From Stegostoma tigrinum (lineage: Eukaryota): a stretch of DNA of 64,000 bases. Made by a program: the position numbers and the translations under genes. Shown piece by piece: positions 7,940 to 50,300 of the stretch (within the stretch, counting starts at the first letter, position 1; each line of letters begins with the position of its first letter). The stretch is taken from contig NC_081391.1 in NCBI RefSeq assembly GCF_030684315.1, positions 21,164,629-21,228,628 on the forward strand, written 5' to 3'. Below the pieces are notes generated by a model. The model was not told where the DNA came from, ran no database searches, and worked only from the letters and a program-made list of their open reading frames with translations.

Positions 7940-9129
7940 AAGCATGTGGATGAGGGAAGGGCAGTTGACGTGGTGTACATGGACTTCAGTAAAGCCTTTG
8001 ATAAGGTTCCACATGGTAGGCTATTGGAGAAAATACAGAGGCAGAGGATTGAGGGAGATTTAGCAGTTTGGATTAGAAACTGGCTTTCTGTAAGAAGGCA
8101 ACGAGTGGTGGTTGATGGAAAATATCCAGCCTGGAGTCAGGTCACTCGTAGTGTGCCTCAAGGATCTGCTTTAGGACCACTGCTGTTTGTCATTTTTATA
8201 AATGACTTGGACGCAGGCATAGGTGGATGGGTTAGTAAGTTTGCAGATGACACTAAAGTCGGTGGAGTGGTGGACGGTGTGGAAGAATGTTGCACGTTGC
8301 AGGGAGACTTGGATAAACTGCAGAATTGGGCTGAAAGGTGGCAAATGGAGTTCAATGCAGATAAATGTGAGTTGATTCAATTTTGGGTGAATAACAGGAA
8401 GGCAGAATACTGGGTCAATGGAAAGATTCTTGGCAGTGCGGATGTGCAGATAGATCTTGGTGTCCATGTACATAGATCCCTGAAAGTTGTCACCCAGATT
8501 GATAATGCTGATAAGAAGGCTTACCGTGTGTTAGGTTTTATTGGTAGAGGGATTGAGTTCCGGAGCCGTGATGTCATGCTGCAACTGTACAAAACGCTAG
8601 TGCGGCCTCATTTGGAATATTGCGTGCAGTTCTGGTCACCCCGTTACAGGAAGGATGTGGAAGCATTGGGAAAGGTGCAGAGGAGATTTACCAGGATGTT
8701 GCCTGGTCTGGAGCGCAGGCCCTATGAAGAAACGCTGAGGGACTTGGATCTGTTCTCATTGGAGAGAAGTAGGCTAAGAGGGGATTTAATAGAGACATAC
8801 AAGATGATCAGAGGATTAGATAGGGTGGACAGTGAGAGTCTTTTTCCGAGGATGATGACTTCAACTTGTACAAGGGGGCATAGCTACAAATTGCAGGGTG
8901 ATACATTTAAGACATTTGTCAGAGGCAGGTTCTTTGCTCAGAGAGTGGTAAGGGCGTGGAAAGCCCTGCCTGCCAATGTAGTTAACTCAGCCACGTTAGG
9001 GGCATTTAAACAGTCCTTGGATAAGCATATGGATGGTGACGTGATTGTGTAGGAGGTGGGGCTTGGATTAGCTCACAGGTCGGCGCAACATCGAGGGCCG
9101 AAGGGCCCGTTCTGCGCTGTATTGTTCTA
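7940..9129 (+). mobile_element. 5'-truncated CR1 LINE (CR1-b) with an uninterrupted 368-codon RT fragment
   Basis: ORF 7946-9052: VDVVYMDFSKAFDKVPH, VPQGSALGP, FADDTK. TSD TGAACC (7934-7939) / TGAGCC (9130-9135). Confidence 0.94.
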
Positions 9130-9135
9130 TGAGCC

Positions 9136-9722
9136 TTGTGTTTTCAAATTGAGGCATCGAGCATAAAAGCAAGGAATTGATGATACCCCTCTACAACTCA
9201 TTGGTTAGACCACATTTGCAGTGATGTGCTCAGTTCTGGGCGTGGCTTTTCAGGAAGGGCATTCAAGCCCTGGACAGAGTTCAAAGGTGATTTATAATAA
9301 TGACACCTGGAATGGGGAATTTCAGACACACGGAAAGATTAAAGAAATTGCGCTCTATTCTCCTTGGAGCAAGAAGCACTTGTTGAAGTGATCAAAATTA
9401 TCACCAATTCTGTCAGGGTAAAGGGGGATATTCTGTTTTCACCAGTGGATACGTTAGTGACGAGGGGTCACAATTTGTCAGTGAGGGAGCTCACAGTGAG
9501 AGGAGGAGAAACCTCTTCACTCAGAAAGTTGGTAGGGTTTGGTATGCGTAGCTGACAGGAGTGATGGACGCAGATTCCACAGGTGGCTTTAGAAAAGCAG
9601 CTGTATACATATATGGAAGTGGCAAATTTAGAGGGATACAGACATAGGGCTGGAGAGTGGGGCTGGGTGTGGAATGCTTTCAGAAGCTGAATCAGGCACG
9701 ATGGGCCAAATGGCCTCCTATC
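9136..9722 (+). mobile_element. Old degenerate CR1-type LINE, 3' part interrupted by CR1-b (paralog ~30895-31480)
   Basis: Continues the fossil that starts at ~7800; same decayed motifs. Confidence 0.7.
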
Positions 9723-9817
9723 ATTAAAAATCCTCTGCATGTTCCCCCAGGAAATTCTCAGAGTTTGGAGAGGGCCTTTGTACTCCTCTCAGTGGGCACC
9801 TGTACAAGGCACCTTTA

Positions 9818-10150
9818 ATGTGGGAAAGCTGTTACACATCAGCAGAGACATGGTCCTTTACACAAGGTAGACCCAGTTCCACTGGCAAAGAAATGTTGAC
9901 TGGGGATCCCCCAACTGCTGACCTTCACCCACCGTCACAGCCAACGATAGCACACGCCTATCTTCCACCTGGATGGCCGTTGGGAACTTGTTTTGCATTG
10001 CACTTTACCAGGACCTTCCCCTCGATCGTACTGTCCTGGGTGGCCCTGCCAGGAGGTGAAATCCTCTTCAGGTATCACTCTCAGAACCAACAGAACACTC
10101 GAGGCTCTCCATCACTGCGAGGTGACAATCCACAGGCAGGAGCTGGAGGC
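9818..10150 (+). mobile_element. Highly decayed RTE-like LINE fragment (paralogs at 16763, 31576, ~38410, 50329)
   Basis: Remnants across frames resemble the LLY..ETW ... FHL ... P.QEV ... GI..TLEAL region of the RTE ORF C-terminus. Recognised by eye only. Confidence 0.35.
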
Positions 10151-10300
10151 AGGGAGATGCTGCTCAGGTACAGACCCATCACAGAATCGGAGAATTGTTG
10201 TGGCACAGCAGGCGGCCATTCGGTCCTTTGTGCCTGTACCTGTTCTGGTTGTTTTCTAATTCTGCCTGTAGAGATGTTACAAAATCTCTGGATCTGGTAT

Positions 10301-10360
10301 GGACTTGGACCAAGGCTTCCTGGTCCACAGCTAGGGACATTACCCCTGCATCACAATACC
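10301..10360 (-). mobile_element. tRNA-derived SINE head fragment (one per B/C upstream region)
   Basis: Reverse complement ggtattgtgatgcaggggtaatgtccctagc...ggtccaagtcc has degenerate Pol III A-box and B-box spacing. Confidence 0.5.
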
Positions 10361-10383
10361 CTGGCTGCACTGGTTGTACAAAC

Positions 10384-10760
10384 TTAGAATCATCGAAAAA
10401 AAATTGTTGGATTCGGCCATTCAGCCCCCTCCAGACTGCTCTGCCATTCCATGTGATTGTGGCTGATTCCATAACTCAGTCCCATCTTCCCACTCTCTCT
10501 CCATACTCTTTGATCCCTTCAGCCCTCAAAGCTGCACCCAACTGCTCCTGGAAAACATTCAAAGTTTTGGCCTCAAATGTTTTCTGTGGCAGAGAATTCC
10601 ACAGGACCCCCACTCTCTCGGTGAAGAGATTTCTCCTCATCTCAGTCCTAAATGTGTACTTAGGCTGTGACCCCTGGTCCTGAACTTTTCCATCATCAGG
10701 AACATCCTTCCTGTCTTTTCCACAGCTGACACTATGACAATTTTCGATGACCCCGAGCCA
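10384..10760 (-). mobile_element. Antisense CR1 3' fragment (paralogs ~17330-17680, ~32142-32510, ~38980-39330, ~50897-51245)
   Basis: Minus-strand ORF contains FRTEMRRNLFTERVGVLWNSLPQK, typical of the CR1 ORF2 C-terminus. Confidence 0.75.
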
Positions 10761-11245
10761 ATTTCCCACCTTTCTTTCCCAAATCCCAGCACAACAGGCT
10801 GAGAAACTGACACTCCCCTTCCTCAATGAGTCCCTTCTGCAGTTGATCACAACCACCATAATTTAAAAACAAAACGAGCAATCTTTTCTCAAACCATATT
10901 TACTTCTTTTAAAAAAGAACCAAATGACCCATGACCTGATTGAGTGCTGCAGAAGGTTTGAGATGCCGAATGGCCTCCTGCTGTTCCAATCACAGAATAA
11001 CCATCCAGACCTGGCTCTCATCTCCACCTCTGATCAGCTCTGCTTAACACACCCTCCCCCTCTCTCTCATTGGTGCCTGCATCCAAGGGTCATTCCTGAT
11101 TGGCTAGCAGCAACTGTCAGTCATCATCAGTTCGGTCTCCCTCTGGGTGAGTGCCGGTTGTCTCAGGAGTAGAAACACAACAGCTTTGGGGATTGAGGCC
11201 TTTGTTCCAGAGTTGTCCTTGTGATTGTGAGCAGGAATAGTGAAG

Positions 11246-13765
11246 ATGGCTTCCCAAGTGTGTCAGAACTACCACAAGGACTGTGAGGATGTTGTTAACA
11301 AGCAGATCAACCTGGAGCTCTATTCCTCCTATGTTTACCTCTCCATGGTGAGCTTTGTGGAATTGAAGCCTGTGTGATAACAGTGTTGACCTGTTTGGGT
11401 TTTTATGCTGGGTTAATGACTTAGCTGTAGCATGTATTGTTTTCTGTGGCCCTTCCCCTGATGCAATCTCGTGCAAGTCCTAACACTGACTCTCTGTTCA
11501 GGTTTTGAACACTGTCTTAATATACAACTGGCTCCTGGGTGTGGATCCCCAGTTGTCCATCTCGGGACAGTGTAGCCCTTGGTGATTGTTTTCATTGAAC
11601 TCTGGAGGGTTGAGCTGGTTTTGCTGATAAATTTAACTTGGTTATATCCCTTTTCTTCAGAAAACCTGTCCTGGTAGGACACAAATGTCTCCTTTTGTTT
11701 GAACCTTGCCCCATTTGCCAGACTGGCTTATGTTCAAGATCTAAAGTTCCCTTAACTAAAGACAGCAACTGCTGGAAATCAAACAGCAACAAGAATAGCT
11801 AGAAAAGTTCTACAGATCTGCAAGGAATGGCGGAAGAAATCCGGTCAAATTTTGGGTCCACTGACCCTTGCTCAGTGTGTTTTGTGAGCTATGACAAGTG
11901 GCACACACTTGAAATATTAACTCGTGTACAACAAAGCAGTTAGAATTCTGTGTGGAGTGGGTGGTAGGACACTAGGGTTATTCAGGTGGGTGATGGTGAT
12001 AATGAGGCTGCTGACTGAGATTTCTGGCTGTGTTAATGACTGACTGCATTATTCATAGCATTTCATTCAGTTGGACAGGGGTCTAACTAGTCTCCACCTC
12101 GCGAACAATAATGTTTTATCACCTGCAGAACAGGGATATCTAATGGCTATAGACAGCTGTCCCCTTCATTGTGCACCATGCCACACTCTATCGCACCATT
12201 TTAGCAAAACACAGGTGAGGGATTGCATTTGGTTTTTGTCCTCTATTTCCAGAAGTCTGGCTAAGTATCTGTTACATGGGTTATAATCCATGGAAGGTGA
12301 CTTCCTGGCTCTCTCTAGTTTTGCCCACTTAAATGTGGAGTCAAGATGGTAACTGGGTTAGTATCTGAGAAGAGGCATTGATGTATTTTAGACATTTCCC
12401 TTTATTGCCTCTTTCCCCCGACAGGTCTCTTACTTTGACCGGGATGATGTTGCCCTGCGTCACTTGGCTGAGTTCTTAAAGGAGCAGTCCCATGAGGAGC
12501 GGGAACACGCTGAGAAACTGATGGCTTTCCAGAATAAACGTGGAGGCCGAATCCTCCTGCAGGACATCAAGGTTGCATTCCAAAGCTTTCTTTTGCCGCT
12601 TTTTGTGAAATACCACTCAATTGTGGCTAGCTCAATCTGTTTAGCTTCAGGACTGAGCAAATACTGTATGAATGGGGGGGGGGGGTTGCTCACCACAATA
12701 CGATTCCCTTCACTAAAAGGAAACACTTTTGCACGTGATTGAACAATAGTTGGCAATTGTGATAATCCAGTATTCTGGATGGTGAGCAAATATCGGTGTC
12801 TACTGCTGCTTTGGACAAGATGAGGTGTCAAAAGGGAAAACAGAAATCTTTCAGGTGTGGAAAGCATCAGTATGAAGCCTTAATACATCTAGAAGATGTT
12901 TCTGATGCCTTGTGATTACTCTGATCACAGCATAGCAGGATCTGTTTAGAAATGTCCCCTTCAAGAACAGTACCAAATACAGCAGGTGTTTCACCAAGGT
13001 CAAGTCGGCCTGTAGTACTTCCCCTACAATGATGAGGGATAATTAACTGATCAGATGTAGACTAATGATACAACTGCCTGCTGAAATCAGAATATCCTGC
13101 TTTACTCTGACAAAATTGATCATAGTTTTGATCACGTCAATAAGGTCACCTACAAGGAGATTTCCCCCATTTTCCTTAATCTTTCCGTGTATCTAAAATT
13201 CCCCATTCCTGGGGTCATCGTAATAAATCACCTTTGAACACTTTTGAGGTTTTTCACATCCTTCCTTGAATGTCATGCCCAGAACTGAGTACATAATGGA
13301 AATGTGGTCTAACCAATGATTTGTAGAGGTGTAACATCAATTCGTTGCTTTTATACTCGATGCCTCAATTTGAAATTGAATTTGTATTTAAATCTGGGTT
13401 TCTGAATAAAAACAGTGATCAGACACTTGGTCCTTTTTGTTAGCCACAAGATCTCATTTGACATTGTGGAGGGTTTTCTTGGGTTATACCAACATCCTCC
13501 TGTTTCTAAAACTGAGCACTTTCGAAAGTATTTGGCAATCTCCATGACATCACTTCACTGTTCGGTCTCCCAAGCTGCATTTGGTCAGATTTAACCAGTT
13601 CCCCTCTTTGTCTTCCAGCTGTATGACTTCCTGGAGAGGCACTACCTGGATGAGCAAGTGAAGATGATCAAGAAGCTGGGAGATCACATCACCAACCTGA
13701 AGAGACTGGGAGCCCCTGACAATGGCATGGGAGAGTACCTGTTTGACAGGCTCTCACTCAGCTGA
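11246..13765 (+). pseudogene. Ferritin gene, B/D chimera lacking exon 3 (copy 2)
   Basis: Exon 1 11246-11347, exon 2 12425-12571 and exon 4 13619-13765 are open. Exon 3 and its splice sites are absent and replaced by the inverted insertion at 13078-13375. Confidence 0.88.
13078..13375 (-). repeat. 298-bp inverted copy of 16104-16401 (old CR1 fossil segment) inserted in ferritin copy 2
   Basis: ctgctgaaatcagaatatcctgc...tgcctcaatttgaaa is the reverse complement of tttcaaattgaggca...gcaggatattctgatttcagcag; one mismatch seen. Confidence 0.95.
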
Positions 13766-15959
13766 ATGGGGTCAATATCTATATCTGTTGTACATGGTGA
13801 CCTCATTCTACTAAATGACTAGTTGTGCTCTGAGCAAATTAAAATAGTGTTCACCATGGAACTGAGCACAGTATGTAATTTTCATAGCTTCTGGTTCTTG
13901 GAGCTTTTTGTGTTTTAATGTCTGATCATCAATCCTTTGTTCTTTGTGTCAAGCTTTTGATTCAATGCCTGCCCCAGTACCTTGATCAGTGTTTGATTCT
14001 GCTGTGTCTGGGGATTGAGTGGGCAATCCTTTTATTGGAAATTCCATAACTGGTAAGGTTGTTGACAGATAAATCAGCATTACTGACATGTACTCACAGG
14101 GACAAGTTTGCAGGACCAGCTTCTAATCAATACACTGACTGAAATCATTCCTTTGCCTAAAGGGTAGGCACTGATCTAATGCACTGCCCTTGGCCATGTG
14201 TTTGCATCTCTTTTAAATAAGGAGATTCTGGAAACCAGGAACACAACCTGCTGGGAAATCTCAGGTTGGGCAGCATTGGTAGGGAGAAGGGTTGAACAGA
14301 ACCTGGACATGAGACACTCAATCATCTCTTGATTGACTTTGTTGCCTGACAGTGAGGTGTTTTCCAGCAATTTGTTCTCATGCCTAGATGTTAGTGATTT
14401 TAGTAGTTTGTAAAATTCCTCCTTACAAGACTAAGATACAATGCTTTTCCACAGTCTCTTTTTTTCTTTGACATAAGCAATTGCTCATGTCATTGTTCCC
14501 AGAGCTAGGGAATTAGTTTCTTCAGTATTTCCTTTATACATGTAGGAGAAGGACAAATCTACCTTCTCTTAGAATGCTAACGTCTAGGAACGGCCATGCG
14601 AATGAAGCGGTGCCCACCTTGTTCCCTGTGTGATAACTTCTATTATTACCCTGCAACGAAGAGGTGACAAATACTGAGGATGCCTGGTGGAAAATCAAGC
14701 TAAAATACAAATACCATGTGCAGAATCGGCAGTTCCAATTTTTACGTTTTTTAATCTTCAGCAGGAGAGCTGATCTGGCTGACCTGTGACTCCAAACAGT
14801 GCACTGTGGTGGCCTAATCACTATCAATCAGCCCTGAATTACAATGTGACTGGTTTGTGTAAGGGCTTTAACAGGATCAGGCTATCACTGACAGGCAGCA
14901 TTTATTATCCATCTCTGATTACCCACCCAGCCCATGAGTAATTCAAATTAAACCCCTTTGCTCTGCCTGTGGCGTTACGCAAAGGCCCGATCAGGTAAGG
15001 ATGGCAGTTTCTTACGAACAAGGACATTAGTGAACCAGAAGAGGCTTGTTTGGACCATCTCTTCTGGAAAGAGAATGATGTGCATGAAATTCTGTCAAGT
15101 CAGACAGTATCAGGATTACAGGTGTCAGTCTAACACTCCAGAATGTTGACAGCCTCCAGCAAACGAGCAGCCACTTTCGTCTATCCTTCCACCACTGACA
15201 TACGCAGAGACTGTAATATATACCATCTACCAAATGCTGTAGGAATCCACCAAAGCTCCTCAGACAACTTCTTAAAATTCTGACTACTTTCCATCGGACA
15301 AGGGCAGATGATATGTGGGAACACCACGTTCTACACCAAACCACCGATCAGCTGGTGTTGGAAACATCGCTCCCAGGTTCCCTCCCGAACAGCAGTATGG
15401 GTTTGATTACACCAAATGGGCAACAGTAATGCAAGAAGGCAAGTCACCACATTCTCTAAACTAATGTTGGCCCTGATCTCTGAGGGGTTCAAATACCTCT
15501 GGATGAAGAGATTTTGGTGAAATGGTCAAGTTCCTGTTCAACCACAGCCGGAGTGCACAGTTCTGGCAGGTTCGACCCAAAGATGGTTATGCACAGAATT
15601 TCTGGAAGTAACCTGGACAGAGTGATGGTTAATTCATGATAACGGCTTGTCTAGTCCCTCTGTGTAGGAAGTTAAGGGATGGCTGTAATTGATAATTTTC
15701 AGAGGATTAATGGATTTGACAGGGTAGAGAGGAAAGAACCCATTTCTTCTCAATGATCATCTCGGACTGTGCGCAGAATGGGATGACAATCTTCACGTGA
15801 GAATTACATCATCCAGGATAATATCAAAAACAAATTTCTTTGTGGAAGGGACAATATCTGCACACACAGATATTTACTGCACAAGGTTTGATGTTGCCAA
15901 TCACTTTCCAATTTCAACAAAAAAAAGTGAGTAATGCATTTTTGTCGAAGAAACACAAA

Positions 15960-16680
15960 GTCAAAACAGGCTCGATGTTACAAATCTGATGTGAGTACAG
16001 GAGCTCAGCGACTTTCAGTTTCAAGTATGTGATTATCTGAAAGTGGTCAGGCAGGATGAAGCTGTTATTAATGGAGATTGAGCCACTTTTGTGAACCTTG
16101 TGTTTTCAAATTGAGGCATCGAGTATAAAAGCAACGAATTGATGTTACACCTCTACAAATCATTGGTTAGACCAAATTTCCATTATGTACTCAGTTCTGG
16201 GCATGACATTCAAGGAAGGATGTGAAAAACCTCAAAAGTGTTCAAAGGTGATTTATTACGATGACCCCAGGAATGGGGAATTTTAGATACACGGAAAGAT
16301 TAAGGAAAATGGGGGAAATCTCCTTGTAGGTGACCTTATTGACGTGATCAAAACTATGATCAATTTTGTCAGAGTAAAGCAGGATATTCTGATTTCAGCA
16401 GTTGACTTGTCAGTGACGAGGGGTCACAGTTTGTCAGTAGGGGAGATCAGAGTGAAATGGTTAGAAAACTCTTTGCTCAGAAAGTTGTTCGGATTTGGAA
16501 TGTGCTGCCTGGGAGAGTGACGGAGGTCGATTCCATGGTTGGTTTCAGAACAAGAGTTGGATATGTCCTTGGAAGTGACGAATTTAGAGAGTGACAGAGA
16601 TAGGGCTGGAAAGTGAGACTAATCAGGTAGCTCTTTCAGAAGCTATTACAGGAACGGTGGGCTGAACGGCCTCCTGTTGT
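15960..16680 (+). mobile_element. Old degenerate CR1-type LINE, uninterrupted 'empty-site' version (paralogs ~37615-38327, ~49527-50245)
   Basis: Homologous to 1960-2690. Shows gtgaaccttgtgttttc without the CR1-b insertion. Confidence 0.7.
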
Positions 16681-17994: not shown

Positions 17995-18104
17995 ATTGGT
18001 GCCTGTATGCTGCGGTGGTTCCTGATTGGCCAGCAGCAACTGTCAGTCATCATCAGTTCTGCCTCTCTCTGTGTGACTGCAGGATGGTCCCAGGACTATA
18101 AATA
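17995..18104 (+). promoter_or_regulatory. Pol II core promoter of copy 3: two inverted CCAAT boxes plus TATA
   Basis: ATTGG at 17995 and 18025; TATAAATA at 18097-18104, ~70 nt upstream of the ATG. Confidence 0.75.
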
Positions 18105-18173
18105 CAAGAGCCTGTGGGAGAGAGAGACTTAGTTCTAGAGTTTTCTTGGTGCTTGTGAGCAGGAATAGTGAAG

Positions 18174-33003: not shown

Positions 33004-35396
<2,393 letters not shown>

Positions 35397-38300
35397 ATGG
35401 GGTCAATATCTATATCTGTTGTACATGGTGACCTCATTCTACTAAATGACTAGTTGTGCTCTGAGCAAATTAAAATAGTATTCACCATGGAATTGAGTAC
35501 AGTGTGTAATTTCCATAGCTTCTGGTTCTTGGAGCTTTTTGTGCTGTCATGTCTGATCATCAATCCTTTGTTCTTTTGTGACATCCTTTGATTCAATGCC
35601 TGCCCCAGTAACTTGCTCAGTGTTTGATTCTGCTGTGTCTGGGGATTGAGTGGGCAATCCTTTTATTGGAAATTCCATAACTGGTAAGGTTGTTGACAGA
35701 TAAGTCAGCATTACTGACATCCACTCGCAGGGACAAGTTTGCAGGACCAGCTTCCAATCAATGCACTGACTGAAATCAGTCCTTTGCCTAAAGGGTAGGC
35801 ACTGATCTAATGCACTGCCCTTGGTCATGTGTTTGGGTCTCTTTTTAAATAAGCAGATTCTGGAAACCAGGATCAAAACCTGCTGGGAAATCTCAGGTTT
35901 GGCAGCATTGGGAGGGAGAAGGGTTGAACAGAACCTGGCCATGAGACACGTGATCATCTCTTGTTTGATTTTGTTGCCTGACAGTGAGGTGTTTTCCAGC
36001 AATTTGTTCTAATGCCTTGGTGTTACTCATTTTCGTAAATCGTAAAATTCCTCCTCCCAAAGAGTAAGATAGAATGCTTTTCCGCAGTTTTTTTTCTTTG
36101 ACATAAGCAATTGCTTATTGCACTCTTCCCTGAGCTAGGGAATTAGTTTCTTCAGTATCTCCTTCTTACATGTAAGAGAAAGGAAACATCTACCTTGTCT
36201 TACAATGCTAAAGATGATGAGGAACTGCGTTGGGAATGAAGCAGTGCCCCCCCCTTGTTGCCTGTGTGATAATTTCTATTATTACCCTGCAACGAAGAGG
36301 TGACAAATACTGAGGATGCTTGGTGCAAAAGCAAGCTAAAATGCAACGAGCATGTGCAGAAATCAGCAGTTTCAATTTTCAAGCAGATCAGATCGCCTGC
36401 TGTCGACTGGCTGATCTGTGACTCCACACAGTGCACGCTGGGGGCCTAATCACTATCAATCAGCCCTGAATTACAATGTGACTGGTTTGTGTAAGTGCTT
36501 TAACAGGATCAGGCTATCACTGACGGGCAGCATTTATTATCCATCTCTGATTACCCACCCAGCCCATGAGTAATTCAAATTAAACCCCTTTGCTGTGGCC
36601 GTGGGGTTACACATAAGCCAGAGCAGGTAAGGATGGCAGTTTCTTACAAACAAGGACATTAGTGAACTAGAAGAGGCTTGTTTGCACCATCACTTCTGGA
36701 ATGAGAATGATGTGCAGGAAATTCAGTGATGTCAGACAGAATCAGGAAAACAGGTTGCAGTCTAACACTACAGAATGTTGACAGCCTCCAGCAAACGAGC
36801 AGCCACTTTAGTCAATCCTTCCACCACTGACATACGCAGAGACTGCAATATATACCATCTACCAAATGCTGTAGGAATCCACCAAAGCTCCTCAGACAAC
36901 TTCTTAAAACCATAACTACTTTCCATCGGACAAGGGCCGCAGAAATGTGGGAACACCATGCCTCTCCACGTTCTACACTAAGCCACTGCTCATCTGGCGT
37001 TGGAAACATAGCCCCACATTCCCTCCCTAACAGCAGTATGGCTTTGCCTACACCAAATGGGCAACAGTAACGCAAGAAGGAAAGTCACCACGTTCTCGAA
37101 ACTAATGTTAGCCCTGATCTCTGAGGGGTTCAAATACCTCTGGATGGAGAGGTATTGGTGAAATTGTCAAGTTCCTGTTCAACCACAGCCGGAGTGCACA
37201 GTTCTGGCAGGTACGACCCCGACAATGGTCATGCACAGAATTTCTGGAAGTAACCTGGACAGAGAGATGGTTAATTCATCATAATGGCTTGTCCAGTCCC
37301 TCTGTGTAGAAGGTTAAGGGATGGCTGTAACTGATATTGTTCAGAGGACTAACGGATTTGACAGGGTAGAGAGGAAAGAACCCATTTCTTCTCAATGATC
37401 ATCTCGGACTGTGCGTAGAATGGGATGACAATCTTCACATGAGAACTACATCATCCAGGATCATGTCAAAAACAGTTACTTTGTGGAAAGGACAACATTT
37501 GCACGCACAGATATTTACTGCACAAGGCTTGATGTTGCCAATCACTTTCCAATTTCAAGACATGAAAAAAAAAATGAGTAATGCATTTTTGTCCAAGAAA
37601 CACAGAAAGACAAAACAGGCTCGATGTTACAAATCTGATGTGAGTACAGGAGCTCAGAGGCTTTCGGTTTCAAGTATGCGATTATCTGAAAGTGGTCAGG
37701 CAGGATGAAGCTGTTATTAATGGAGATTGAGCCACCTATGTGAACCTTGTGTTTTCAAATTGAGGCATCGAGAATAAAAGCAATGAATTGATATTGCACC
37801 TGTACAAATCATTGGTTAGACCACATTTCCATTATGTACTCAGTTCTGGGCATGGCATTCAAGGCACGACATGAAAAACCTCAAAAGAGTTCAAAGGAGA
37901 TTTATTAGAATGACCCCAGGAATGAGGAATTTTAGATACACAGAAAGATGAAGGAAAATGGGCTAAATCTCCTTACAGGTGACCTTGTTGACATGATCAA
38001 AACTATGAACAATTTTGATAGAGTAAAAAGGATATTCTGATTTCAGCAGTTGACTTGTCAGTGACGAGGGGTCACAGTTTGTCAGTAGGGGAGATCAGAG
38101 TGAAATGGGAAGAAACCTCTTTGCTCAGAAAGTTGTTCGGATTTGGAATGTGCTGCCTGGAAGAGTGACGGAGGTCGATTCCATGGGTGGTTTCAAAACA
38201 AGAGTTGGATATGTCCTTGGAAGTGACGAATTTAGAGAGTGACAGAGATAGGGCTGGAAAGTGGGACTAATCAGGTAGCTCTTTCAGAAGCTAATACAGG

Positions 38301-39643
38301 AACGGTGGGCTGAACGGCCTCCTGTTGTGAAGAACGCTCTGAATTTCCACCCAGGAAATTCTGAGAGTTTGGGGACGGGGTTTGAATTCCACCTGTACAA
38401 GGCACCTTTAATGTGGGAAAGCTGTTACACATCAGCAGAGACATGGTCCTTTACACAAGGTAGACCCAGTTCCACTGGCAAAGAAATGTTGACTGGGGAT
38501 CCCCCCACTGCTGGCCAACACCCACTGTCACAGCCAACGATCGCACACACCTATCTTCCACCTGGATGGCCGCTGGGGACTGGTTTTGCATTGCACCTTA
38601 TCAGGAGCCTCCCCTCGATCGTACCGTCCAGGGTGGCCCTGCCAGGAGGTGAAATCCTCTTCAGGTATCCCTCTCAGAACCAACAGAACACTCGAGGCTT
38701 TCCATCACTGCGAGGTGACAATCCACAGGCAGGAGCTGGAGGCAGGGAGATTCTGCTCAGGTACAGACCCGCCACAGAATCGGAGAATTGTTATGGCACA
38801 GCAGGAGGCCATTCGGTTCTTTGTGCCTGTACCTGTTCTGGTTGTTTTCTAAATCTGCCTGTAGAGATGATTTAAGAGCTCTGGATCTGGTAGGAACTTG
38901 TACCAAGGCCTCCTGGTCCACAGCTAGGGTCATTACCCCTAAACCACAAGACCCTAGCTGCGCTGGTTGCAGAAACATAGGATCATAGAAAAGAAATGTT
39001 GAGTCGGCCATTCATCCCTTCCAGCCGGCTCTGCCATTCCATGTGATTGTGGCTGATTCCATAACTCGGCACCATATTCTCACCCTCTCTGCAATCCCCT
39101 TTGATCCAGCCCTCAAAGCTCTCCCCAATTCCTGTTTTGGCTTCAATCCTTTTCTGTGGCAGAGAATTCCACAGGTTCCATCACTTCGCCCCCCGAGGTG
39201 AAGAGATTTCTCCTCACCTCAGTCCTAAACGTATCCTTAGATTGCAAACCCTGGTCCTGGCCTCCCCCATAATCAGGAACATCCTTCCTGTCTTTTCCAC
39301 AGCAGACACTGTTATAATTTTTCTATGACCCAGAGACAATTTCCCACCCTTCTTTCCCAAATCCCAGCACAACAAGCTGAGAAACTGATGCCCCTCTTCC
39401 TCATTGAATCCCTCGTGCAGTTGCTCACAACCACCTTAATTTTTAAAAAATGTGTAACTTTTTTGAAACCAAATTGACTTCTTTTAGAAAAGAACCAAAT
39501 GATCTATGACCTGATTGAGTGCTGCAGAAGGTTTGAGATGCTGAATGGCCTCCGGCTGTTCCAATCACAGAATAACCATCCAGACCTGGCTCTCATCTCC
39601 ACCTCTGATCAGCTCTGCTTAACACACCCTCCCCCTCTCTCTC

Positions 39644-39753
39644 ATTGGTGCCTGTATGCAGGGGTGGTTCCTGATTGGCCAGCAGCAACTGTCAGTCATC
39701 ATCAGTTCTGCCTCTCTCTGTGTGACTGCAGGATGGTCCCAGGACTATAAATA
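39644..39753 (+). promoter_or_regulatory. Core promoter of copy 6: two inverted CCAAT boxes plus TATA
   Basis: ATTGG at 39644 and 39674; TATAAATA at 39746-39753. Confidence 0.75.
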
Positions 39754-39822
39754 CAAGAGCCTGTGGGAGAGAGAGACTTAGTTCTAGAGTTTTCTTGGTG
39801 CTTGTGAGCAGGAATAGTGAAG

Positions 39823-42215
39823 ATGGTTTCCCAAGTGTGTCAGAACTACCACAAGGACTGTGAGGATGCTGTTAACAAGCAGATCAACCTGGAGCTCTAT
39901 TCCTCCTACGTTTACCTCTCCATGGTGAGCTTTGTGGAATTGAAGCCTGTGCTATGATAGTGTTGACCTGTTTGGTTTTTACGCTGGGTTAATGAATTAG
40001 CTGTAACATGTATTATTTTCTGTGGCCCTTCCCCTGTTGCAATCTAGTGCAGGCCTTAACACTGACTCTCTGTTCAAAACCTGACCATTGTCTTCATGTC
40101 CAACTGGCTCCTGGATGTGGACGCCCAGCTTGCTATCTCTGGACAATGTAACCCTTGGTGATTTTTCATCTAACTCTGGAGGGATGATGTGGTCTTTGTC
40201 AATAACTAAATTTTAAAATTGGTTGCATTCCTTTTCTCAACAAAAGCTTTCCCTGGTGGAAACTTTTCCTGACACAAATATACTCCTTTTTGTTTAAAAC
40301 CTTGCCCCATTCACCAGACTGTCTTGTGCTCAAGATGTAAAGTTCCCTGAACTAAAAGAACAGCAGCTGCTGGACACTAAACACCAACAGAAAAGCTCTA
40401 AACATCTGGTTGAAAACCAAGCTCTGGGTCCACTGACCCTTTCTCAAGTGGCTTTGAGCTATGCAATGTGAGGAAAGAGGCACACTTTCACACTATGTAT
40501 GTGATTTTTTTCTCTCTCTAACAAAGCAGTTAGAATTCTGTGGAGTGGATGGTAGGACACTGGGGTTATTCAGGTGGGTGATGGTGATAATGAGGCTGCT
40601 GACTGAGCTTTCTGGCTGTGTTCACGAACACATGTCCCTTCATTCAGTTGGACAGGGGCCTAACTGGTCTCCACCTCCTGAACAAGTGTTTCTAACCTGC
40701 AGAGCAGGGATGTCTAATGTCTATAGATAGCTCTCCACTTCATCAGGCACCATGCCACATGTACTGTCTCTCTTTCTCGCTCACACAGGCCAGGGATTGC
40801 ATTTGCTTTTTGTCCTTGATTTCCAGAAAGCTGGTGAAATATCTGCACAAAGGCTGCTTTAGTATCTGTTGTTTGGGTTATAATCCATGGAAGGTGACTT
40901 CCTGCTTTGCCTGTTTTTTTACCACTTAAATGTGGAATCAAGATGGTGCCCAGGTTATTTCCTGAGTGAGGAGTGTCATTCACGAATTTCAGACAGTTTC
41001 CTTTTAACCTCTCTCCCTCCCTCCCTCCCTCCACAGTTCTCTTACTTTGACCGGGATGATGTTGCCCTGCATCACTTTGCTGAGTTCTTCAAGGAGCAGT
41101 CCCATGAGGAACGGGAACACGCTGAGAAACTGATGGCATTCCAGAATAAACGTGGAGGTCGAGTCCTCCTGCAGGACATTAAGGTTGGATTCTGAAGCCT
41201 TCTGTTTGTGTAGCTCTTTGTGAGCAGCTACAATCGACTGGTATCTCCCTCTATTTAGCTTTAGCATTGAACAAATACTGTATGAAGGGGAGGTTGTTCT
41301 GCAAAATAGGCTTCCTTTAGGTGACAGGAAATAATCATCAATTGAGACTCACCAGAATAGTGAGTAGATATCAATGTGAATGACTCTCCTTTAGACAGAC
41401 TGAGGGAACAAAAGCTGAGACAGGAAATTGTTGCAGTGTGGAAAGTAGCAGTGTCCAGCCTTTCAGAATCTAGAAGATGTTTCTAACACCACAATCGTGA
41501 AGCCTATTCTCTGCATGTGAATTGAGAATCGACATGAACAGTAGAATGTGTTTAGAAAATTTCTTATTCCCTCAGTACAAAATCTAGTTGTCTTGAACAA
41601 ATTCAAGTTTGTTTGTAGTACCTCCTACAATGATGAGGGATAACTAACCGATGTAGACTAATGATACAACTGCCTGCTGAACTCTGCTTTCTGTTCCCAC
41701 TTCCCTCCCTCCAGAAGCCAGAGCAGGATGAGTGGGGCAATGGTCTGGAGGCAATGCAGAGAGCTCTGCAGATGGAGAAGGATGTGAACCAGAGTCTGCT
41801 GGATCTGCACAAACTGGCCTCTGGCCACATGGACCCTCATGTGAGTTTGTAAACTGTATTCTCTCTCTTCCTTGGAAGAAAGTGATGTGTTTGTGCACTC
41901 TCTCTTGGTTTAAAAATCCAATTACCTTCTCCCAGCCTCCTACCGGCTGGTAAAACCTTTCAAAGGCATCACCTAAGTGGACCTCCACATGGTGGTGATG
42001 GTCGCGTCTGTCATGGGAAGTCACTTTCAGACACCTTTTTGATCCTCTGGATTAATTTTGTCTTCCAGCTGTGTGACTTCCTGGAGAGGCACTACTTGGA
42101 TGAGCAAGTGAAGATGATCAAGAAGCTGGGAGATCACATCACCAACCTGAAGAGACTGGGAGCCCCTGACAATGGCATGGGAGAGTACCTGTTTGACAGG
42201 CTCACACACAGCTGA
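39823..42215 (+). CDS. Ferritin heavy/middle-subunit-like protein, type C' (copy 6), 173 aa, intact
   Basis: join(39823-39924,41037-41183,41715-41840,42069-42215). GT-AG introns; ends DRLTHS*. Confidence 0.95.
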
Positions 42216-44296
42216 GTGAGGTCAATAATGTGTCTGTTGTACATGGTGACATAATGCTAGTAACTTGGTTGTGCTCTGAGCAAATTAAAATAGTGTTCAC
42301 CATGGAACTGAGTACTTTGTATAATTTCACAGCTGCTTCTGGCTCTTGGTATTGCTGTTTGACACCTGATCATTAATTCCTTTTCTGTTCTGATTACCCT
42401 TTGATTCAATGCCTGCCCCAGTCGTCTGCTCCTTTTCTCTTGTTTGTAGGAATTAGGTGGGCAATCCTCGCAGTGGAAATTCCACAAGTGTTCAATTTGG
42501 GTTTTTGGCTAGTAAGCAGTGTTGTATTGACTTTTTTATTCCAAACCAGCTTCTAGTCAATATCTTCAGTGAAACCAGCCCCCTGTCTCAATGTTAGACA
42601 CTGCCCTTGGCAATGTTCAAGTCTCTTTTGTAAATAAGCAGGGGCAGGAAATAGCAGGTTTGGGGAGCATCTGTGGAGAGAACTGTTCTCAGTCCCAGGA
42701 CCCAAGATACAGTCACATCTCGTGACAGATGTTGCCAGACCTGTGAGGCTTTCCAGCAATTTTTTTGTCGCACTTCAAATCTAGCAATTTGAGCATACTT
42801 TCACTCTTTTGAACAGGAATATATAGTGGAACATCCAGCATCTAAGATGCACTGATCTTTAGCACTTTAGATAAGCAATTGTTTCCAGAGCTGGGAAATA
42901 GTTTACTCTCTTTTGCTGCAGTGGGGGAAGGAGTAAGGGCACTGCCTGATTGTAGGAGAATGGCAAAATTTGTTTTCTCGTGTATCAGTCTTTCTGCTTT
43001 TAGACAATGATCCTCATTATGTAATGCAGCAGTGCCCACCTTGGAGCCCCTGTGGTAGAACTTCTATCATTGCTCTGCAATGTAGAGATGCCAAAGGCTC
43101 AGGACACCTAGTAAAAATAAAGCTAGAATGCAAATGCCACTAGCACAAAGCAGCAGTTTGTGTGCTTAGCAAGGAAATAAGCTCTCCTGATGTATGCTGA
43201 CCGGCATGTACCTCCACCTGCAATGTGCTATGGCTGCCTAATTACTGGTGCTCAGGGGTGACAGTTTCCTTTATTTAAAGGATGAGGATGTCTCTGAGCT
43301 GACACCATTTATTTATCCATTGCTCATTGTCCCCAAGGCCAGGTCAGAGTCACACACGTGGCTGTGGTTGCAGCGTCATACGCAGGCCAGGTAAGGATGG
43401 GTTTTTGACACTGAATATAATGCTCCTCATCAGCTTCTTAATTCTAGAACTCCAGAGAGTTGTCGCACAGAATTAGGAGATCATTCCACCACTCCAGAAA
43501 CTTGATGGCCTCCAGCAGCCACTAGATGCATTCTTTGCACCACTGACACACACGGAGTACACTGTGTACCGCCTCCCAAAAGCTGGAGAAATCCACCAAA
43601 GCTCCTGAGAATACTTTCCAAAGCCCTAATTACTTGCCATGGGAGAAAGGCATCTGATACAGGGGAAAACCACCCCCTCTAAGTTCTCCATGAAGCTACC
43701 TGCCATCCTGAGTTGGAAACACAACACCCCATTCTCCAGTGTCGGTGGATCAGAATCCTGGAATTCCCTCACTAGGAACATTGTGGATCTGACTACAGCA
43801 ATTAAAGAAGGAAAGCCACCCCATTCTCTCATGGTGGGTGTGATCTCCGAGCGGGTCAAATACCTCTGGCTGGGCCGCCTTTTGTGAAATTGTCAAGTTC
43901 TAGCTCAACTCCATCTCGAGTGCATGGTTCTAGTAGGTTCAATCCAAAGATGCTTATGCACAGAATTTCTGGAATGAACCTGGGCAGAAAGTTAATTGGC
44001 TACGATGATAATCGTTTTCCCAAGTCCCTCGATGTAGAAGTGGACGGGATGTCTGTGCTTGAAATTTACAAGTGGATTCATGGATTTGACAGGGTAGATA
44101 GAGAGATCCTGCTTCTTTTCAATTCACATCCAGGACTGAGAGGGGGGAATATGATTACATTCCTAGCAGTAGAAGTAAATCATCCATGATAAAGCAAAAA
44201 ACAGCTGCTTTTTAGAAAGGATAATATGTGAATGAGCAGTTAGATATTTATTCGGTAAGATGTTGATGTTGCCAATCACTTTCCCATTGGAACATA

Positions 44297-45472
44297 TGAC
44301 CAAACAGGTAGATGAGAGTAAACCGGTTGATGTGGTGTATATGCATTTCGGCAAGGCGTTCGATTAGGCTCCCCACAGTAGGCTATTGTACAAAATGCGG
44401 AGGAATGGGATTGTGGGAGATATAGCAGTTTGGATCAGAAATTGGCTTGCTGAAAGAAGACAGGGTGGTGGTTGATGGGAAATGTTCATCCTGGAGACCG
44501 GTTACTCGCGGTGTACCGCAAGGGTCCGTGTTGGGTCCACTGCTGTTTGTCATTTTTATAAACGTAGAAGGATGGGTTAGTAAATTTGCAGATGACACTA
44601 AGGTCGGTGGAGATGTGGGTAGTGACGAAGAATGTTGTAGGTTACAGAGAGACGTGGATAAGTTGCAGAGCTGGGCTGAGAGGTGGCAAATGGAGGTTAA
44701 TGCCGACAAGTGTGAGGTGATGCACTTTGGTAGGAGGAACCGGAAGGCAAAGTACTGTAAGATTCTTGGTAGTGTAGATGAGCAGCGAGATCTCGGTGAC
44801 CATGTACACAGATCCTTGAAAGTTGCCACCCAGGTTGACAGGGTTGTTAAGAAGGCATACAGTGTTTTAGCTTTTATGAATACAGGGATCGTGTTCCGGA
44901 ACCAAGAGGTTATGCTGCAGCTGTACAAAACTCTTGTGCGGCCGCACTTGTAGCATTGCGTACAGTTCTGGTCAGCGCATTATAAGAAGGATGTGGAAGT
45001 TTTGGAAAGGGTGCAGAGGAGGTTTACTGGGATGTTGCCTGGTATGGAGGGAAAGTCTTACGAGCAAAGGCTGAGGGACTTGAGGCTGTTTTCGTTAGAG
45101 AAAAGAAGGTTGAGAGGTGACTTAATTGAGACATCTAAGATAATCAAACGGTTAGACAGGTTGGATAGGGAGAGCCTTTTTCCCAAGACGGAGACAGCGA
45201 GCACGAGGGGCATAGCTTTAAATTGAGGGGTGAAAGATATACGACAGATGTCAGAGGTAGTTTCTTTACTCAGAGAATAGCAAGGGTGTGGAACGTTTTG
45301 CCTGCAACGGTAGGAGATTCACCAACGTTAAGTACGTTTAAGTTGTCATTGGACAAGCATATGGACGTACATGGAATAGTGTAGGTTAGATGAGCTTCAG
45401 ATCGGTATGACAGGTCGGCACAACGTCAAGGGCCGAAGGGCCTGTACTGTGCTGTCATGTTCTCTGTTCTAT
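44297..45472 (+). mobile_element. CR1-a copy, diverged paralog upstream of type D
   Basis: ORFs 44447-44953 and 44993-45226. Same insertion site and AACATA TSD (44291-44296, 45473-45478). Confidence 0.92.
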
Positions 45473-45514
45473 AACATAAAAGATGAATGCATTTAAGATT
45501 ATCTTCATTAGAAG

Positions 45515-46022
45515 GGTGATGGGGTCGGGGGGGAACCTGACTGAGGTCAACAAAATCATGAGAACTATAGACAAGGTGAATAGCAAGAAGCTTTTTCCCA
45601 GAGTCGGGGATTCAATGACTCGGAGTCATGAGTTCAAAATAAGAGCAAAGTTTAGAGGGGATTTGGTTAGATTGCCTACAGTGTGGAAACAGGCCCTTTA
45701 AGCCAAAAATGTCCACACTGGCCCTTGAAGCATCCCACCAAAACCCCCCACACTTCTGAACGCTACGGGCAATTTATCATGTGGATGTGTGGCAAGCTCT
45801 TTACGCAGAGGTTGGAGGGTGCCTGGCACACTTTGCCTGTGGAGGTGGTAGACGAAGTCACGCAAGTGTCTTTTTAAGATGTATCAGGACAGGTACATGG
45901 ATGGGCAGGGAGCAAAGGGATACTGACCCTAGAAAAGAGATGACAGACTTACACAGGATCTCGATCGGTGCAGGCTTGGAGGGCCGAAGGGCCTGTTCCT
46001 GTGCTGTGATTTTCTTTGTTCT
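45515..46022 (+). mobile_element. Short CR1 3' fragment abutting intron 1 of copy 7
   Basis: Encodes GNLTEVNKIMRTIDKVNSKKLFPRVG...HEFKIR and KLFTQRLEGAWHTLP; ends gggccgaagggcctgttcctgtgctgt. Confidence 0.8.
45662..45781 (-). mobile_element. Antisense SINE 3' fragment nested in the CR1 fragment
   Basis: agattgcctacagtgtggaaacaggccctt...gggcaatttatcatg interrupts the CR1 frame and resembles the reverse 3' end of elasmobranch HE1-type SINEs (from memory). Confidence 0.55.
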
Positions 46023-46124
46023 TAAATGTAGAATCAAGATAGTGACCAGGTTAGTTTCTGATTGAGGAGTGCCATTGATTAACATCAGATATGTTTCCCT
46101 TTCCTGCCTTTCTCTTCCCCACGG

Positions 46125-47332
46125 TTCTCTTACTTTGACCGGGATGATGTTGCCCTGCGTCACTTTGCTGAGTTCTTCAAGGAGCAGTCCCATGAGGAGC
46201 GGGAACACACTGAGAACCTGATGGCTTTCCAGAATAAACGTGGGGGCCGAATCCTCCTGCAGGACATCAAGGTTAGATTCTGAAGCCTTCTGTTTGCAGC
46301 TTTTCGTGAAATACCACTCAATTGTGGCTCGCTCAATCTGTTTAGCTTCAGGACTGAGCAAATACTGTATGAATGGGGGGGTTGCTCACCACAATACGAT
46401 TCCCTTCACTAAAAGGAAACACTTTTGCACGTGATTGAACAATAGTTGGCAATTGTGATAATCCAGTATTCTGGATGGTGAGCACATATCGGTGTCTAAC
46501 GCTGCTTTGGACAACATGAGGTGTCAAAAGGGAAAACAGAAATCTTTCAGGTGCGGAAAGCATCAGTATGAAGCCTTTATACATCTCAAGATGTTTCTGA
46601 TGCCTTGATATCACTCTGATCACAGCATAGCAGGATCTGTTTAGAAATGTCCCCTTCAAGAACAGTACCAAATACAGCAGGTGTTTCACCAAGGTCAAGT
46701 TGGCCTGTAGTACCTCCCCTACAATGATGCGGGATAACTAACTGATCAGATGTAGACTAATGATACAACTGCCTGCTGAGCTGTGCTTTCTGTTCCTGCT
46801 TCCCTCCCTCCAGAAGCCAGAGCAGGATGAGTGGGGCAATGGTCTGGAGGCAATGCAGAGAGCTCTGCAGATGGAGAAGGTTGTGAACCAGAGTCTGCTG
46901 GATCTGCACAAACTGGCCTCTGGCAACACAGACCCTCATGTGAGTGTGGTGTATTTAAATCTGGGTTTCTGAATAAAAACAGTGATCAGACACTTGGTCC
47001 TTTTTGTTAGCCACAAGATCTCATTTGACATTGTGGAGGGTTTTCTTGGGTTATACCAACATCCTCCTGTTTCTAAAACTGAGCACTTTCGAAAGTATTT
47101 GGCAATCTCCATGACATCACTTCACTGCTCGGTCTCCCAAGCTGCATTTGGTCAGATTTAACCAGTTCCCCTCTTTGTCTTCCAGCTGTGTGACTTCCTG
47201 GAGAGGCACTACCTGGATGAGCAAATGAAGATGATCAAGAAGCTGGGAGATCACATCACCAACCTGAAGAGACTGGGAGCCCCTGACAATGGCATGGGAG
47301 AGTACCTGTTTGACAGGCTCACACTCAGCTGA
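46125..47332 (+). pseudogene. 5'-truncated ferritin pseudogene, type D (copy 7; exons 2-4 only)
   Basis: Exon 2 46125-46271 (acceptor AG>GG at 46123-46124), exon 3 46814-46939, exon 4 47186-47332. Only ~100 bp of intron 1 remains (from ~46021), preceded by LINE sequence. There is no promoter or exon 1. Confidence 0.9.
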
Positions 47333-50300
47333 ATGGGGTCAATATCTATATCTGTTGTACAAGGTGACCTCATTCTACTAAATGACTAGTTGTGCTCTGA
47401 GCAAATTAAAATAGTGTTCACCATGGAACTGAGCACAGTGTGTAATTTTCATAGCTTCTGGTTCTTGGAGCTTTTTGTGTTTTAATGTCTGATCATCAAT
47501 CCTTTGTTCTTTGTGACAAGCTTTTGACTCAATGCCTGCCCCAGTAACTTGATCAGTGTTTGATTCTGCTGTGTCTGGGGATTGAGTGGGCAATCCTTTA
47601 ATTGGAAATTCCATAACTGGTAAGGTTGTTGACAGATAAATCAGCATTACTGACATGTACTCACAGGGACAAGTTTGCAGGACCAGCTTCTAATCAATAC
47701 ACTGACTGAAATCATTCCTTTGCCTAAAGGGTAGGCACTGATCTAATGCACTGCCCTTGGCCATGTGTTTGCATCTCTTTTAAATAAGGAGATTCTGGAA
47801 ACCAGGAACACAACCTGCTGGGAAATCTCAGGTTGGGCAGCATTGGTAGGGAGAAGGGTTGAACAGAACCTGGACATGAGACACTCAATCATCTCTTGAT
47901 TGACTTTGTTGCCTGACAGTGAGGTGTTTTCCAGCAATTTGTTCTCATGCCTAGATGTTAGTGATTTTAGTAGTTTGTAAAATTCCTCCTTACAAGACTA
48001 AGATACAATGCTTTTCCACAGTCTCTTTTTTTCTTTGACATAAGCAATTGCTCATGTCATTGTTCCCAGAGCTAGGGAATTAGTTTCTTCAGTATTTCCT
48101 TTATACATGTAGGAGAAGGAAAAATCTACCTTCTCTTAGAATGCTAACGTCTAGGAACGGCCATGCGAATGAAGCGGTGCCCACCTCGTTCCCTGTGTGA
48201 TAATTTCTATTATTACCCTGCAACGAAGAGGTGACAAATACTGAGGATGCCTGGTGGAAAATCAAGCTAAAATACAAATACCATGTGCAGAATCGGCAGT
48301 TCCAATTTTTACGTTTATTAATCTTCAGCAGGAGAGCTGATCTGGCTGACCTGTGACTCCAAACAGTGCACTGTGGGGGCCTAATCACGATCAATCAGCC
48401 CTGAATTACAATGTGACTGGTTTGTGTAAGTGCTTTAACAGGATCAGGATATCACTGACGGGCAGCATTTATTATCCATCTCTGATTACCCACCCAGCCC
48501 ATGAGTAATTCAAATTAAACCCCTTTGCTCTGCCTGTGGCGTTACGCAAAGGCCCGATCAGGTAAGGATGGCAGTTTCTTACGAACAAGGACATTAGTGA
48601 ACCAGAAGAGGCTTGTTTGGACCATCTCTTCGGGAAAGAGAATGATGTGCATGAAATTCTGTCAAGTCAGACAGTATCAGGATTACAGGTGGCAGTCTAA
48701 CACTCCAGAATGTTGACAGCCTCCAGCAAACGAGCAGCCACTTTCGTCTATCCTTCCACCACTGACATACGCAGAGACTGCAATATATACCATCTACCAA
48801 ATGCTGTAGGAATCCACCAAAGCTCCTCAGCCAACTTCTTAAAACCGTAACTACTTTCCATCGGACAAGGGCAGATGATATGTGGGAACACCACGTTCTA
48901 CACCAAACCACCGATCAGCTGGTGTTGGAAACATCGCTCCCAGGTTCCCTCCCGAACAGCAGTATGGGTTTGATTACACCAAATGGGCAACAGTAATGCA
49001 AGAAGGCAAGGCACCACATTCTCTAAACTAATGTTGGCCCTGATCTCTGAGGGGTTCAAATACCTCTGGATGAAGAGGTTTTGGTGAAATGGTCAAGTTC
49101 CTGTTCAACCACAGCCGGAGTGCACAGTTCTGGCAGGTTCGACCCAAAGATGGTTATGCACAGAATTTCTGGAAGTAACCTGGACAGAGAGATGGTTAAT
49201 TCATGATAATGGCTTGTCTAGTCCCTCTGTGTAGGAAGTTAAGGGATGGCTGTAATTGATAATTTTCAGAGGATTAATGGATTTGACAGGGTAGAGAGGA
49301 AAGAACCCATTTCTTCTCAATGATCATCTCGGACTGTGCGCAGAATGGGATGACAATCTTCACATTAGAATTACATCATCCAGGATAATATCAAAAACAA
49401 TTTCTTTGTGGAAAGGACAATATCTGCACACACAGATATTTACTGCACAAGGTTTGATGTTGCCAATCACTTTCCAATTTCAACAAAAAAAAGTGAGTAA
49501 TGCATTTTTGTCGAAGAAACACAAAGTCAAAACAGGCTCGATGTTACAAATCTGATGTGAGTACAGGAGCTCAGCGACTTTCAGTTTCAAGTATGTGATT
49601 ATCTGAAAGTGGTCAGGCAGGATGAAGCTGTTATTAATGGAGATTGAGCCACTTTTGTGAACCTTGTGTTTTCAAATTGAGGCATCGAGTATAAAAGCAA
49701 CGAATTGATGTTACACCTCTACAAATCATTGGTTAGACCACATTTCCATTATGTACTCAGTTCTGGGCGTGACATTCAAGGAAGGATGTGAAAAACCTCA
49801 AAAGTGTTCAAAGGTGATTTATTACGATGACCCCAGGAATGGGGAATTTTAGATACACGGAAAGATTAAGGAAAATGGGGGAAATCTCCTTGTAGGTGAC
49901 CTTATTGACGTGATCAAAACTATGATCAATTTTGTCAGAGTAAAGCAGGATATTCTGATTTCAGCAGTTGACTTGTCAGTGACGAGGGGTCACAGTTTGT
50001 CAGTAGGGGAGATCAGAGTGAAATGGTTAGAAAACTCTTTGCTCAGAAAGTTGTTCGGATTTGGAATGTGCTGCCTGGGAGAGTGACGGAGGTCGATTCC
50101 ATGGTTGGTTTCAGAACAAGAGTTGGATATGTCCTTGGAAGTGACGAATTTAGAGAGTGACAGAGATAGGGCTGGAAAGTGAGACTAATCAGGTAGCTCT
50201 TTCAGAAGCTATTACAGGAACGGTGGGCTGAACGGCCTCCTGTTGTGAAAAACGCTCTGAATTTCCACTCAGGAAATTCTGAGAGTTTGGGGACGGGGTT

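Follow-up and report, generated by a model that had tools for sequence, protein, structure and literature searches.

An inverted templated insert in place of exon 3 at a deletion junction in the Stegostoma tigrinum ferritin array

One copy in a tandem array of ferritin genes of Stegostoma tigrinum has lost its exon 3, and in its place lies a 298-bp inverted templated insert at a deletion junction that fuses two paralogs, B and D. This arrangement, which a preliminary description of the same DNA had proposed, was borne out in the assembly by self-alignment of the window (the whole 64-kb stretch of DNA analysed, to which all positions refer). Judged from the sequence, we regard the observation as confirmed in the assembly, not in reads. 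Our tentative reading is that of a real germline rearrangement from one homology-guided repair episode, in which pairing of B with D gave way to microhomology template switches on D. The locus adds a well-preserved case to a known class of repair junctions and documents the death of genes within a ferritin array.

Organization of the ferritin array

The window contains nine ferritin-like gene copies arranged in tandem, all on the forward strand and separated by LINE-rich spacers (Table 1). Their four-exon structure (102/147/126/147 nt) is that of vertebrate ferritin genes, middle-subunit-like, the subunit type being read from exon 3 only, which aligns to residues 84-125 of M ferritin (E 2.6e-16). 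When the exons of B were searched singly against Pfam, exons 2 and 3 (two of the four) matched the Ferritin family (PF00210), and exons 1 and 4 gave no match. Screening of the whole window against Rfam at gathering thresholds returned no matches, hence no iron-responsive element ahead of any copy.

The copies are distributed over repeat units of two lengths, long (33,559 bp) and short (21,756 bp). The long unit carries an old internal duplication (34088-45494 versus 46021-57272, 90.1% identity), with a period of 11,940 bp at exon 3. Younger, 5'-truncated LINE copies at 776-1929, 7937-9131, 29696-30890 and 44299-45466 were duplicated along with the array and hold long open reverse-transcriptase-like frames (for 29696-30890, frame 0, about 200 codons).

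All three A copies are frameshifted pseudogenes that have a common stop within exon 2 and have lost the same 2 nt where exon 4 begins. A2 and A3 both carry an extra 1-nt deletion in exon 2 and are 0.47% apart, versus 0.88-0.89% to A1. The frame of B is open, but B has three amino-acid changes of its own (Q>R, Y>C, S>F) and is perhaps decaying. D is not a whole gene: it has no exon 1, and nothing resembling the promoter, exon 1 or intron 1 of B was found upstream of it. D begins behind stacked LINE/SINE-like fragments (45494-46125), at the edge of the old 11.9-kb internal duplication. D may itself be chimeric, as the final 90 bp of its intron 1 resemble B at only 65% and C2 at 74%.

Table 1. 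Ferritin gene copies in the window and components of the B/D junction
Feature	Position	Strand	Remarks
A1	start 3142 (3142-5552)	+	pseudogene
B/D chimera	start 11246	+	exon 3 missing
C1	start 18174	+	open frame
A2	start 24899 (24899-27309)	+	pseudogene
B	33004-35396	+	open frame
C'	39823-42215	+	open frame
D	46125..47332 (long unit), exon 2 at 46125	+	exons 2-4 only, without exon 1
C2	start 51740	+	open frame
A3	start 58458 (58458-60868)	+	pseudogene
Exon 1 of B/D copy	11246..11347	+	B-type; ATG and donor intact
Exon 2 of B/D copy	12425..12571	+	B-type, 147 nt, phase 0; private F>L at 12466 and 12478; B homolog matches PF00210
B = D identical sequence, 41 bp	13044..13084	+	kept left part of the B-to-D switch interval, in the homogenised intron-2 stretch
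Microhomology CTGCTGA, 7 nt	13078..13084	+	common to intron-2 flank and inverted donor
Inverted templated insert	13078..13375	-	291 nt beyond the microhomology; copy of D-side LINE fragment
Filler TTGAATT, 7 nt	13376..13382	+	echoes the adjoining insert end
D-type intron 3 remnant	13383..13618	+	begins at intron base 11; intron-3 donor and first 10 nt gone, exon-4 acceptor intact
Exon 4 of B/D copy	13619..13765	+	D-type; C>Y at 13623 and T>S at 13754 are private; continues the frame of exon 2
Cis donor, decayed LINE ORF2 fragment, presumably CR1-like	16104..16401	+	2,721-3,018 bp downstream of the right breakpoint
Homogenised intron-2/exon-3 stretch	34784-34999; homologs e.g. 26728-26943, 46724-46939, 53436-53651	+	paralog identity
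Perfect B/D identity tract, 142 bp	34799..34940	+	third longest of 699; includes left breakpoint equivalent 34839
Counterpart of the lost 12,110 bp in the long unit	34840..46949	+	B exons 3-4, whole C' gene, D exons 2-3
Donor counterpart in the long unit	49670..49967	+	one difference from the insert

Structure of the junction

On the left, window positions 1-13084 match 21757-34839 at 98.8%, and on the right 13383-30441 match 46950-64000 at 99.0%. Alignment columns diagnostic for B versus D were B-type in 54 of 60 cases left of the junction (5 D, 1 neither) and D-type in 201 of 213 cases right of it (10 B, 2 neither). These columns substantiate the proposed fusion of B to D, and answer the objection, raised together with that proposal, that both flanks might derive from the same paralog. 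The segments follow one another in the order B, inverted sequence from downstream in D, filler, D. The lengths of the units are fully accounted for, as had been claimed: 33,559 - 12,110 + 298 + 9 (net small indels) = 21,756. The short unit as the ancestral state was ruled out, the B and D sides being 90% alike and each flank 99% identical to its own source.

Microhomology of at least 7 nt occurred in only 112 of 200,000 random inverted joins, and the motif at the left junction is thus above chance. No microhomeology was found there beyond the 7-mer (10,040 of 20,000 null draws scored as well), nor is there an excess of substitutions near the junction, with 15, 10 and 10 in the 12-, 13- and 14-kb bins versus 3-22 elsewhere. 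Both features are common in the FoSTeS/MMBIR class and are not required; that neither is seen here speaks against a replicative signature. The filler TTGAATT also occurs in intron 3 of B (35028), yet the window holds 5 forward and 14 reverse matches, which makes this occurrence uninformative. The insert had been described as entered through the microhomology and exited through the filler. The two elements do lie on opposite sides of it, but their order is unassignable, as the filler can be parsed as repeated priming from either side.

Origin of the insert

The insert (13078-13375) is the reverse complement of both 16104-16401 and 49670-49967, with 99.66% identity to each (297/298); the single mismatches are at 13304 and 13276, one per donor copy. 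Because the paralogous donor on the B side (37753-38049) is just 90.6% identical to the insert and those on the A side about 76-80%, the template is D-type. The 7-mer CTGCTGA is also present on the B side, at 38043, where it was not used.

The donor, which we take to be a CR1 fragment, comes from a LINE, a point absent from the preliminary description: in tblastx it matched the ORF2-like frames of younger elements in the window at 47-58%. It is decayed, with stops and a frameshift. Its derivation from a LINE would suit insertion by retrotransposition or capture of a cDNA at a break, but we consider such an origin scarcely credible: the donor is decayed, the insert is internal to the element and lacks a 3' tail, the site shows a deletion without target duplication, and the insert matches the D-side copy next to it at 99.7%, versus at most 90.6% for all other copies in the window.

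The cis donor is the only copy with a derived base at 16175; the insert has the other base in common with four further copies. Unless 16175 is a consensus error, the insert was copied before this mutation. As a loose gauge of age, the insert and the cis donor show 1 difference, versus about 3 expected at the 1% divergence of the units.

Paralog register and apparent gene conversion

When placed on the alignment of B with D, the breakpoints fall 170 bp from each other (B 34840-35009 = D 46780-46949), which is also the offset of the deletion from the 11,940-bp B/D paralog register. The switch from B to D is confined to a 217-bp interval between the last B-diagnostic base (13043, so that 13044-13084 is assignable to neither B nor D) and the first D-diagnostic base (13389). 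The 142-bp perfect B/D tract overlaps with this interval (13044-13388); tracts at least 130 bp long constitute 5.5% of the 11,407-bp B/D homology. The structure is equally readable as two changes, a loss of 11,940 bp in register and a local deletion of 170 bp that took out exon 3 together with its splice sites and was filled by the insert.

At the end of intron 2, the final 90 bp show 97-98% identity in six of ten paralog pairs and 82-85% in the four pairs that involve C'. In the segment that lies 181-270 bp before exon 3, identity is 45-57% in nine of the ten. Taken together, the intron-2 end (90 bp) and exon 3 are 94-98% identical among most of the otherwise diverged paralogs, the A pseudogenes included, with the adjoining intron at about 45-60%. 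The homogenised stretch is an apparent gene-conversion tract, though the conserved intron-2 end could reflect selection and not conversion.

The chance that a process blind to homology lands this near the register is 1.7% for deletions uniform between 1 and 20 kb, 3.0% with the right end inside the D-side homology, and 5.1% for any of the three exon-3 registers. The register and tract statistics were chosen after the junction had been seen, are mutually non-independent and are moderate (2-5%), so that they shift the odds and settle nothing.

Mechanism of the rearrangement

The junction combines marks of several repair pathways. As in FoSTeS/MMBIR, its microhomology is above chance, and a nearby template was used with two or more switches (297/298 to 16104-16401, plus the filler). 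As in SD-MMEJ by polymerase theta, the inverted template lies on the right-hand fragment and the filler echoes the start of the donor; the insert is not short and close, being 291 nt from 2,721-3,018 bp away (for the typical range we draw on extracts of PMC5728401 and PMC7407515). As in NAHR, the paralog switch falls inside a long identity tract. NAHR alone was ruled out as a full account, since the junction is not seamless, with 170 bp lost and 298 bp gained. The earlier assignment to template switching (FoSTeS/MMBIR) or polymerase theta is upheld as a class by the microhomology, the inverted local template and the filler, but not as a purely non-homologous origin. The claim of one non-homologous event is not established, with breakpoints 170 bp off the B/D register, in the 142-bp perfect tract and the homogenised stretch.

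It is unlikely that one homology-blind FoSTeS/MMBIR or polymerase-theta event deleted 12,110 bp with its ends near the register by chance. Such an event is single and parsimonious, it would leave the microhomology, inverted nearby template and filler that are all seen, and nearby-templated junction inserts of 376-861 bp are described for human rearrangements in extracts of PMC5120786 and PMC6902434. It nevertheless needs the 2-5% register coincidence and, in addition, a break that happened to fall within one of the longest stretches of identity.

We tentatively favour, at somewhat less than even confidence, a germline origin in one homology-guided episode. A broken end in intron 2 of B would have paired in register with the near-identical stretch of D, 11,940 bp downstream. 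This pairing would have been unstable, and synthesis would have jumped via the 7-nt microhomology onto the other strand of that D molecule, 3.0 kb further on, to copy 291 nt backwards from the D-side LINE fragment. Two or three re-primings on 2-nt matches would then have produced the filler before D was rejoined 170 bp beyond the register point. The enzymes may have been those of BIR followed by MMBIR, or polymerase theta acting on a collapsed D-loop. The order in time is the one we infer; the path is legible from either end, so the direction of synthesis cannot be read.

This homology-guided reading is preferred because the breakpoints are only 170 bp off register, the left break falls in the third-longest perfect tract, and intron 2 bears the mark of exchange. 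It also gains from the clustering of the D-type pieces: everything from the insert onward comes from within about 3.2 kb of one D molecule, while the B-side 7-mer at 38043 went unused. Against it, two separate events fit the same sequence: an unequal B/D crossover removing exactly 11,940 bp and producing an intact chimera, then a separate local 170-bp deletion patched from 2.7-3.0 kb downstream. We hold this succession to be possible, if doubtful. The patch could be a snap-back or a template-switch copy, and the order might be reversed, with a lesion in the D copy first and the B sequence arriving later from the left.

A crossover explains the register directly, its 217-bp interval contains the 142-bp perfect tract, and the geometry of the patch is that of snap-back synthesis on the right-hand fragment followed by microhomology annealing, as outlined in extracts of PMC5728401. 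Given that a crossover happened, the density ratio over the non-homologous model ranges from 1.4 (uniform crossover) to 12 (tracts of at least 100 bp only). On the other hand, the later lesion must hit the crossover point, which is 1.9% of the homology if uniform, and the 64-kb window contains no intermediate. The insert is moreover long and distant for end joining. The part of PMC7407515 that bears on such joining speaks of small templated insertions.

Evidence from sequencing reads

Support by raw reads had been named as a check on the junction. No spanning read or contig was found among the records listed for four of ten public runs, which were examined at 80% likeness; contigs in such runs lose rare variants, the bisulfite runs were read to about 1%, and the tract is common to all paralogs. 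In X1, a DNA-like run, the letter of the copy was absent at five of the seven listed private sites and left a small residue at two; the run holds 0.66 of the words, below the 0.73 shared with other units. In the bisulfite runs X6 and X7, 5 and 6 reads, respectively, that are listed as leaving at 13070 run on into intact exon-3 sequence. The short unit may be rare or polymorphic.

These read data would fit an assembly or library artefact, in the form of a chimeric or foldback read or of mis-joined paralogs. We judge an artefact to be very unlikely on sequence grounds. Between the short and the long unit there are 143 substitutions over 13,076 bp on the left and 79 over 8,343 bp on the right, scattered throughout and including 26 and 10 CpG transitions, respectively, so that the short unit is a distinct copy. 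The insert has the ancestral base at 16175, which is unexpected for a foldback copy of the cis donor molecule, and the 298-bp inversion returns to a collinear flank.

Consequences for the ferritin genes

The deletion had been said to remove a whole intact gene, C'. The open-frame C' is indeed gone, but B, which also has an open frame, was inactivated as well, so that two open-frame genes, B and C', are lost. With a net loss of 11.8 kb, C' disappeared and B was turned into a B/D chimera without exon 3. The short unit has one open full-length gene (C1), versus three in the long unit (B, C' and C2).

The B/D copy retains the ATG, the exon-2 donor and the exon-4 acceptor. Exon 3 comprises 42 codons in phase 0, and splicing of exon 2 to exon 4 would give an open 131-codon frame without residues 84-125; with exon 3 absent, the copy does not encode a complete four-helix subunit. 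The missing stretch presumably includes helix C and a ferroxidase ligand. Because residues 84-125 of M ferritin are removed, the B/D copy is most likely non-functional. Its private changes comprise 5 nonsynonymous and 0 synonymous, a ratio that does not discriminate relaxed selection, as B (3:1) and D (5:2) are similar and the changes are too few. As for a cryptic exon within the insert, only weak acceptor-like sites were seen there (13 pyrimidines in 18 positions versus 16-17 in native ones).

Among the ten runs listed by the run search, no recorded RNA run contained the sequence. Run X5, not recorded as RNA, is RNA-like by pattern, with depth almost only on exons and spliced loose ends. It has five low-depth joints (27-381, versus a summed exon-2 depth of 1.8-5.7 million) that are one- to three-letter variants of the exon 2-exon 4 join. 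One of these fits an A-type exon-4 start, and none is assignable to the B/D copy, whose private letters at 13873 and 13980 are absent from X5 (0 of 3,001 and 0 of 2,372 depth). Over 12300-14100, exon depth in X5 reaches millions (summed word depth), and contigs depart at 13755 towards another coding end, which suggests further ferritin paralogs beyond the window.

The junction might also be seen as the fossil of an aborted ectopic gene conversion in a fragile tract, with the exon-3-less copy expressed as a three-helix subunit that alters cage assembly. This combined reading is highly improbable, because it requires expression with an effect. Its mechanistic half alone, a conversion tract that acts as a fragile site where homeologous invasion passes into microhomology switching, is quite conceivable, though short of probable.

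Comparison with known systems

Multi-copy tandem ferritin arrays are known in a fish, the fthl27 expansion of the hadal snailfish, as reported in the part of PMC10746142 concerned with it. The present array, alike in being multi-copy and tandem, differs in its nested higher-order units, pseudogenes and exon-1-less copy. A literature search at the level of titles found no described ferritin array in cartilaginous fish, which is weak evidence.

The junction works in the manner of FoSTeS/MMBIR or theta-type junctions with templated insertions, for which close precedents have been published. In the 1000 Genomes deletion breakpoints (Abyzov, 2015), template sites reportedly lie a few kb from the breakpoints. 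Human FoSTeS/MMBIR junctions similarly have several join-points, microhomology and nearby-templated inserts of hundreds of bp (extracts of PMC5120786; PMC6902434), but the ferritin junction lacks microhomeology and has its ends near the paralog register. In Blm-suppressed mouse ES cells, the clones II-13 and G-4 carry 15-kb and 10-kb deletions with inverted inserts of 432 and 132 bp, linked to interhomolog recombination (PMC3759722, in its account of these clones). They share with the Stegostoma junction a deletion in the 10-15 kb range, an inverted insert of hundreds of bp from neighbouring DNA, short microhomology and a link, proposed for the ferritin junction, to homologous recombination. 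Those events were induced, somatic and interhomolog, whereas the ferritin junction is natural and lies between 90%-identical tandem paralogs.

The SD-MMEJ or polymerase-theta snap-back resembles the junction in its inverted template on one broken end, new joining microhomology and iterative filler; it differs in having primers tens of bases from the break and small germline inserts, against 291 nt from 2.7 kb here (extracts of PMC5728401; PMC7407515). MM-BIR, as summarised in the latter, arises from early BIR intermediates with switches at 2-5 bp. DUP-TRP/INV-DUP rearrangements, for which a homology-driven first switch and resolution by MMBIR or NHEJ have been proposed (PMC11293582, in the extract dealing with them), offer a parallel in the proposed hand-off from non-allelic homology to microhomology within one episode. 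They involve inverted low-copy repeats and a gain of copies, unlike the direct repeats, loss and 298-bp inversion of the ferritin junction. Here, paralog-diagnostic bases allow the junction to be placed relative to the recombination register, which suggests that tandem-copy homology and microhomology switching acted at one spot. Should further units prove to be broken within this tract, the array could serve as a natural experiment on whether gene-conversion tracts seed complex deletions.
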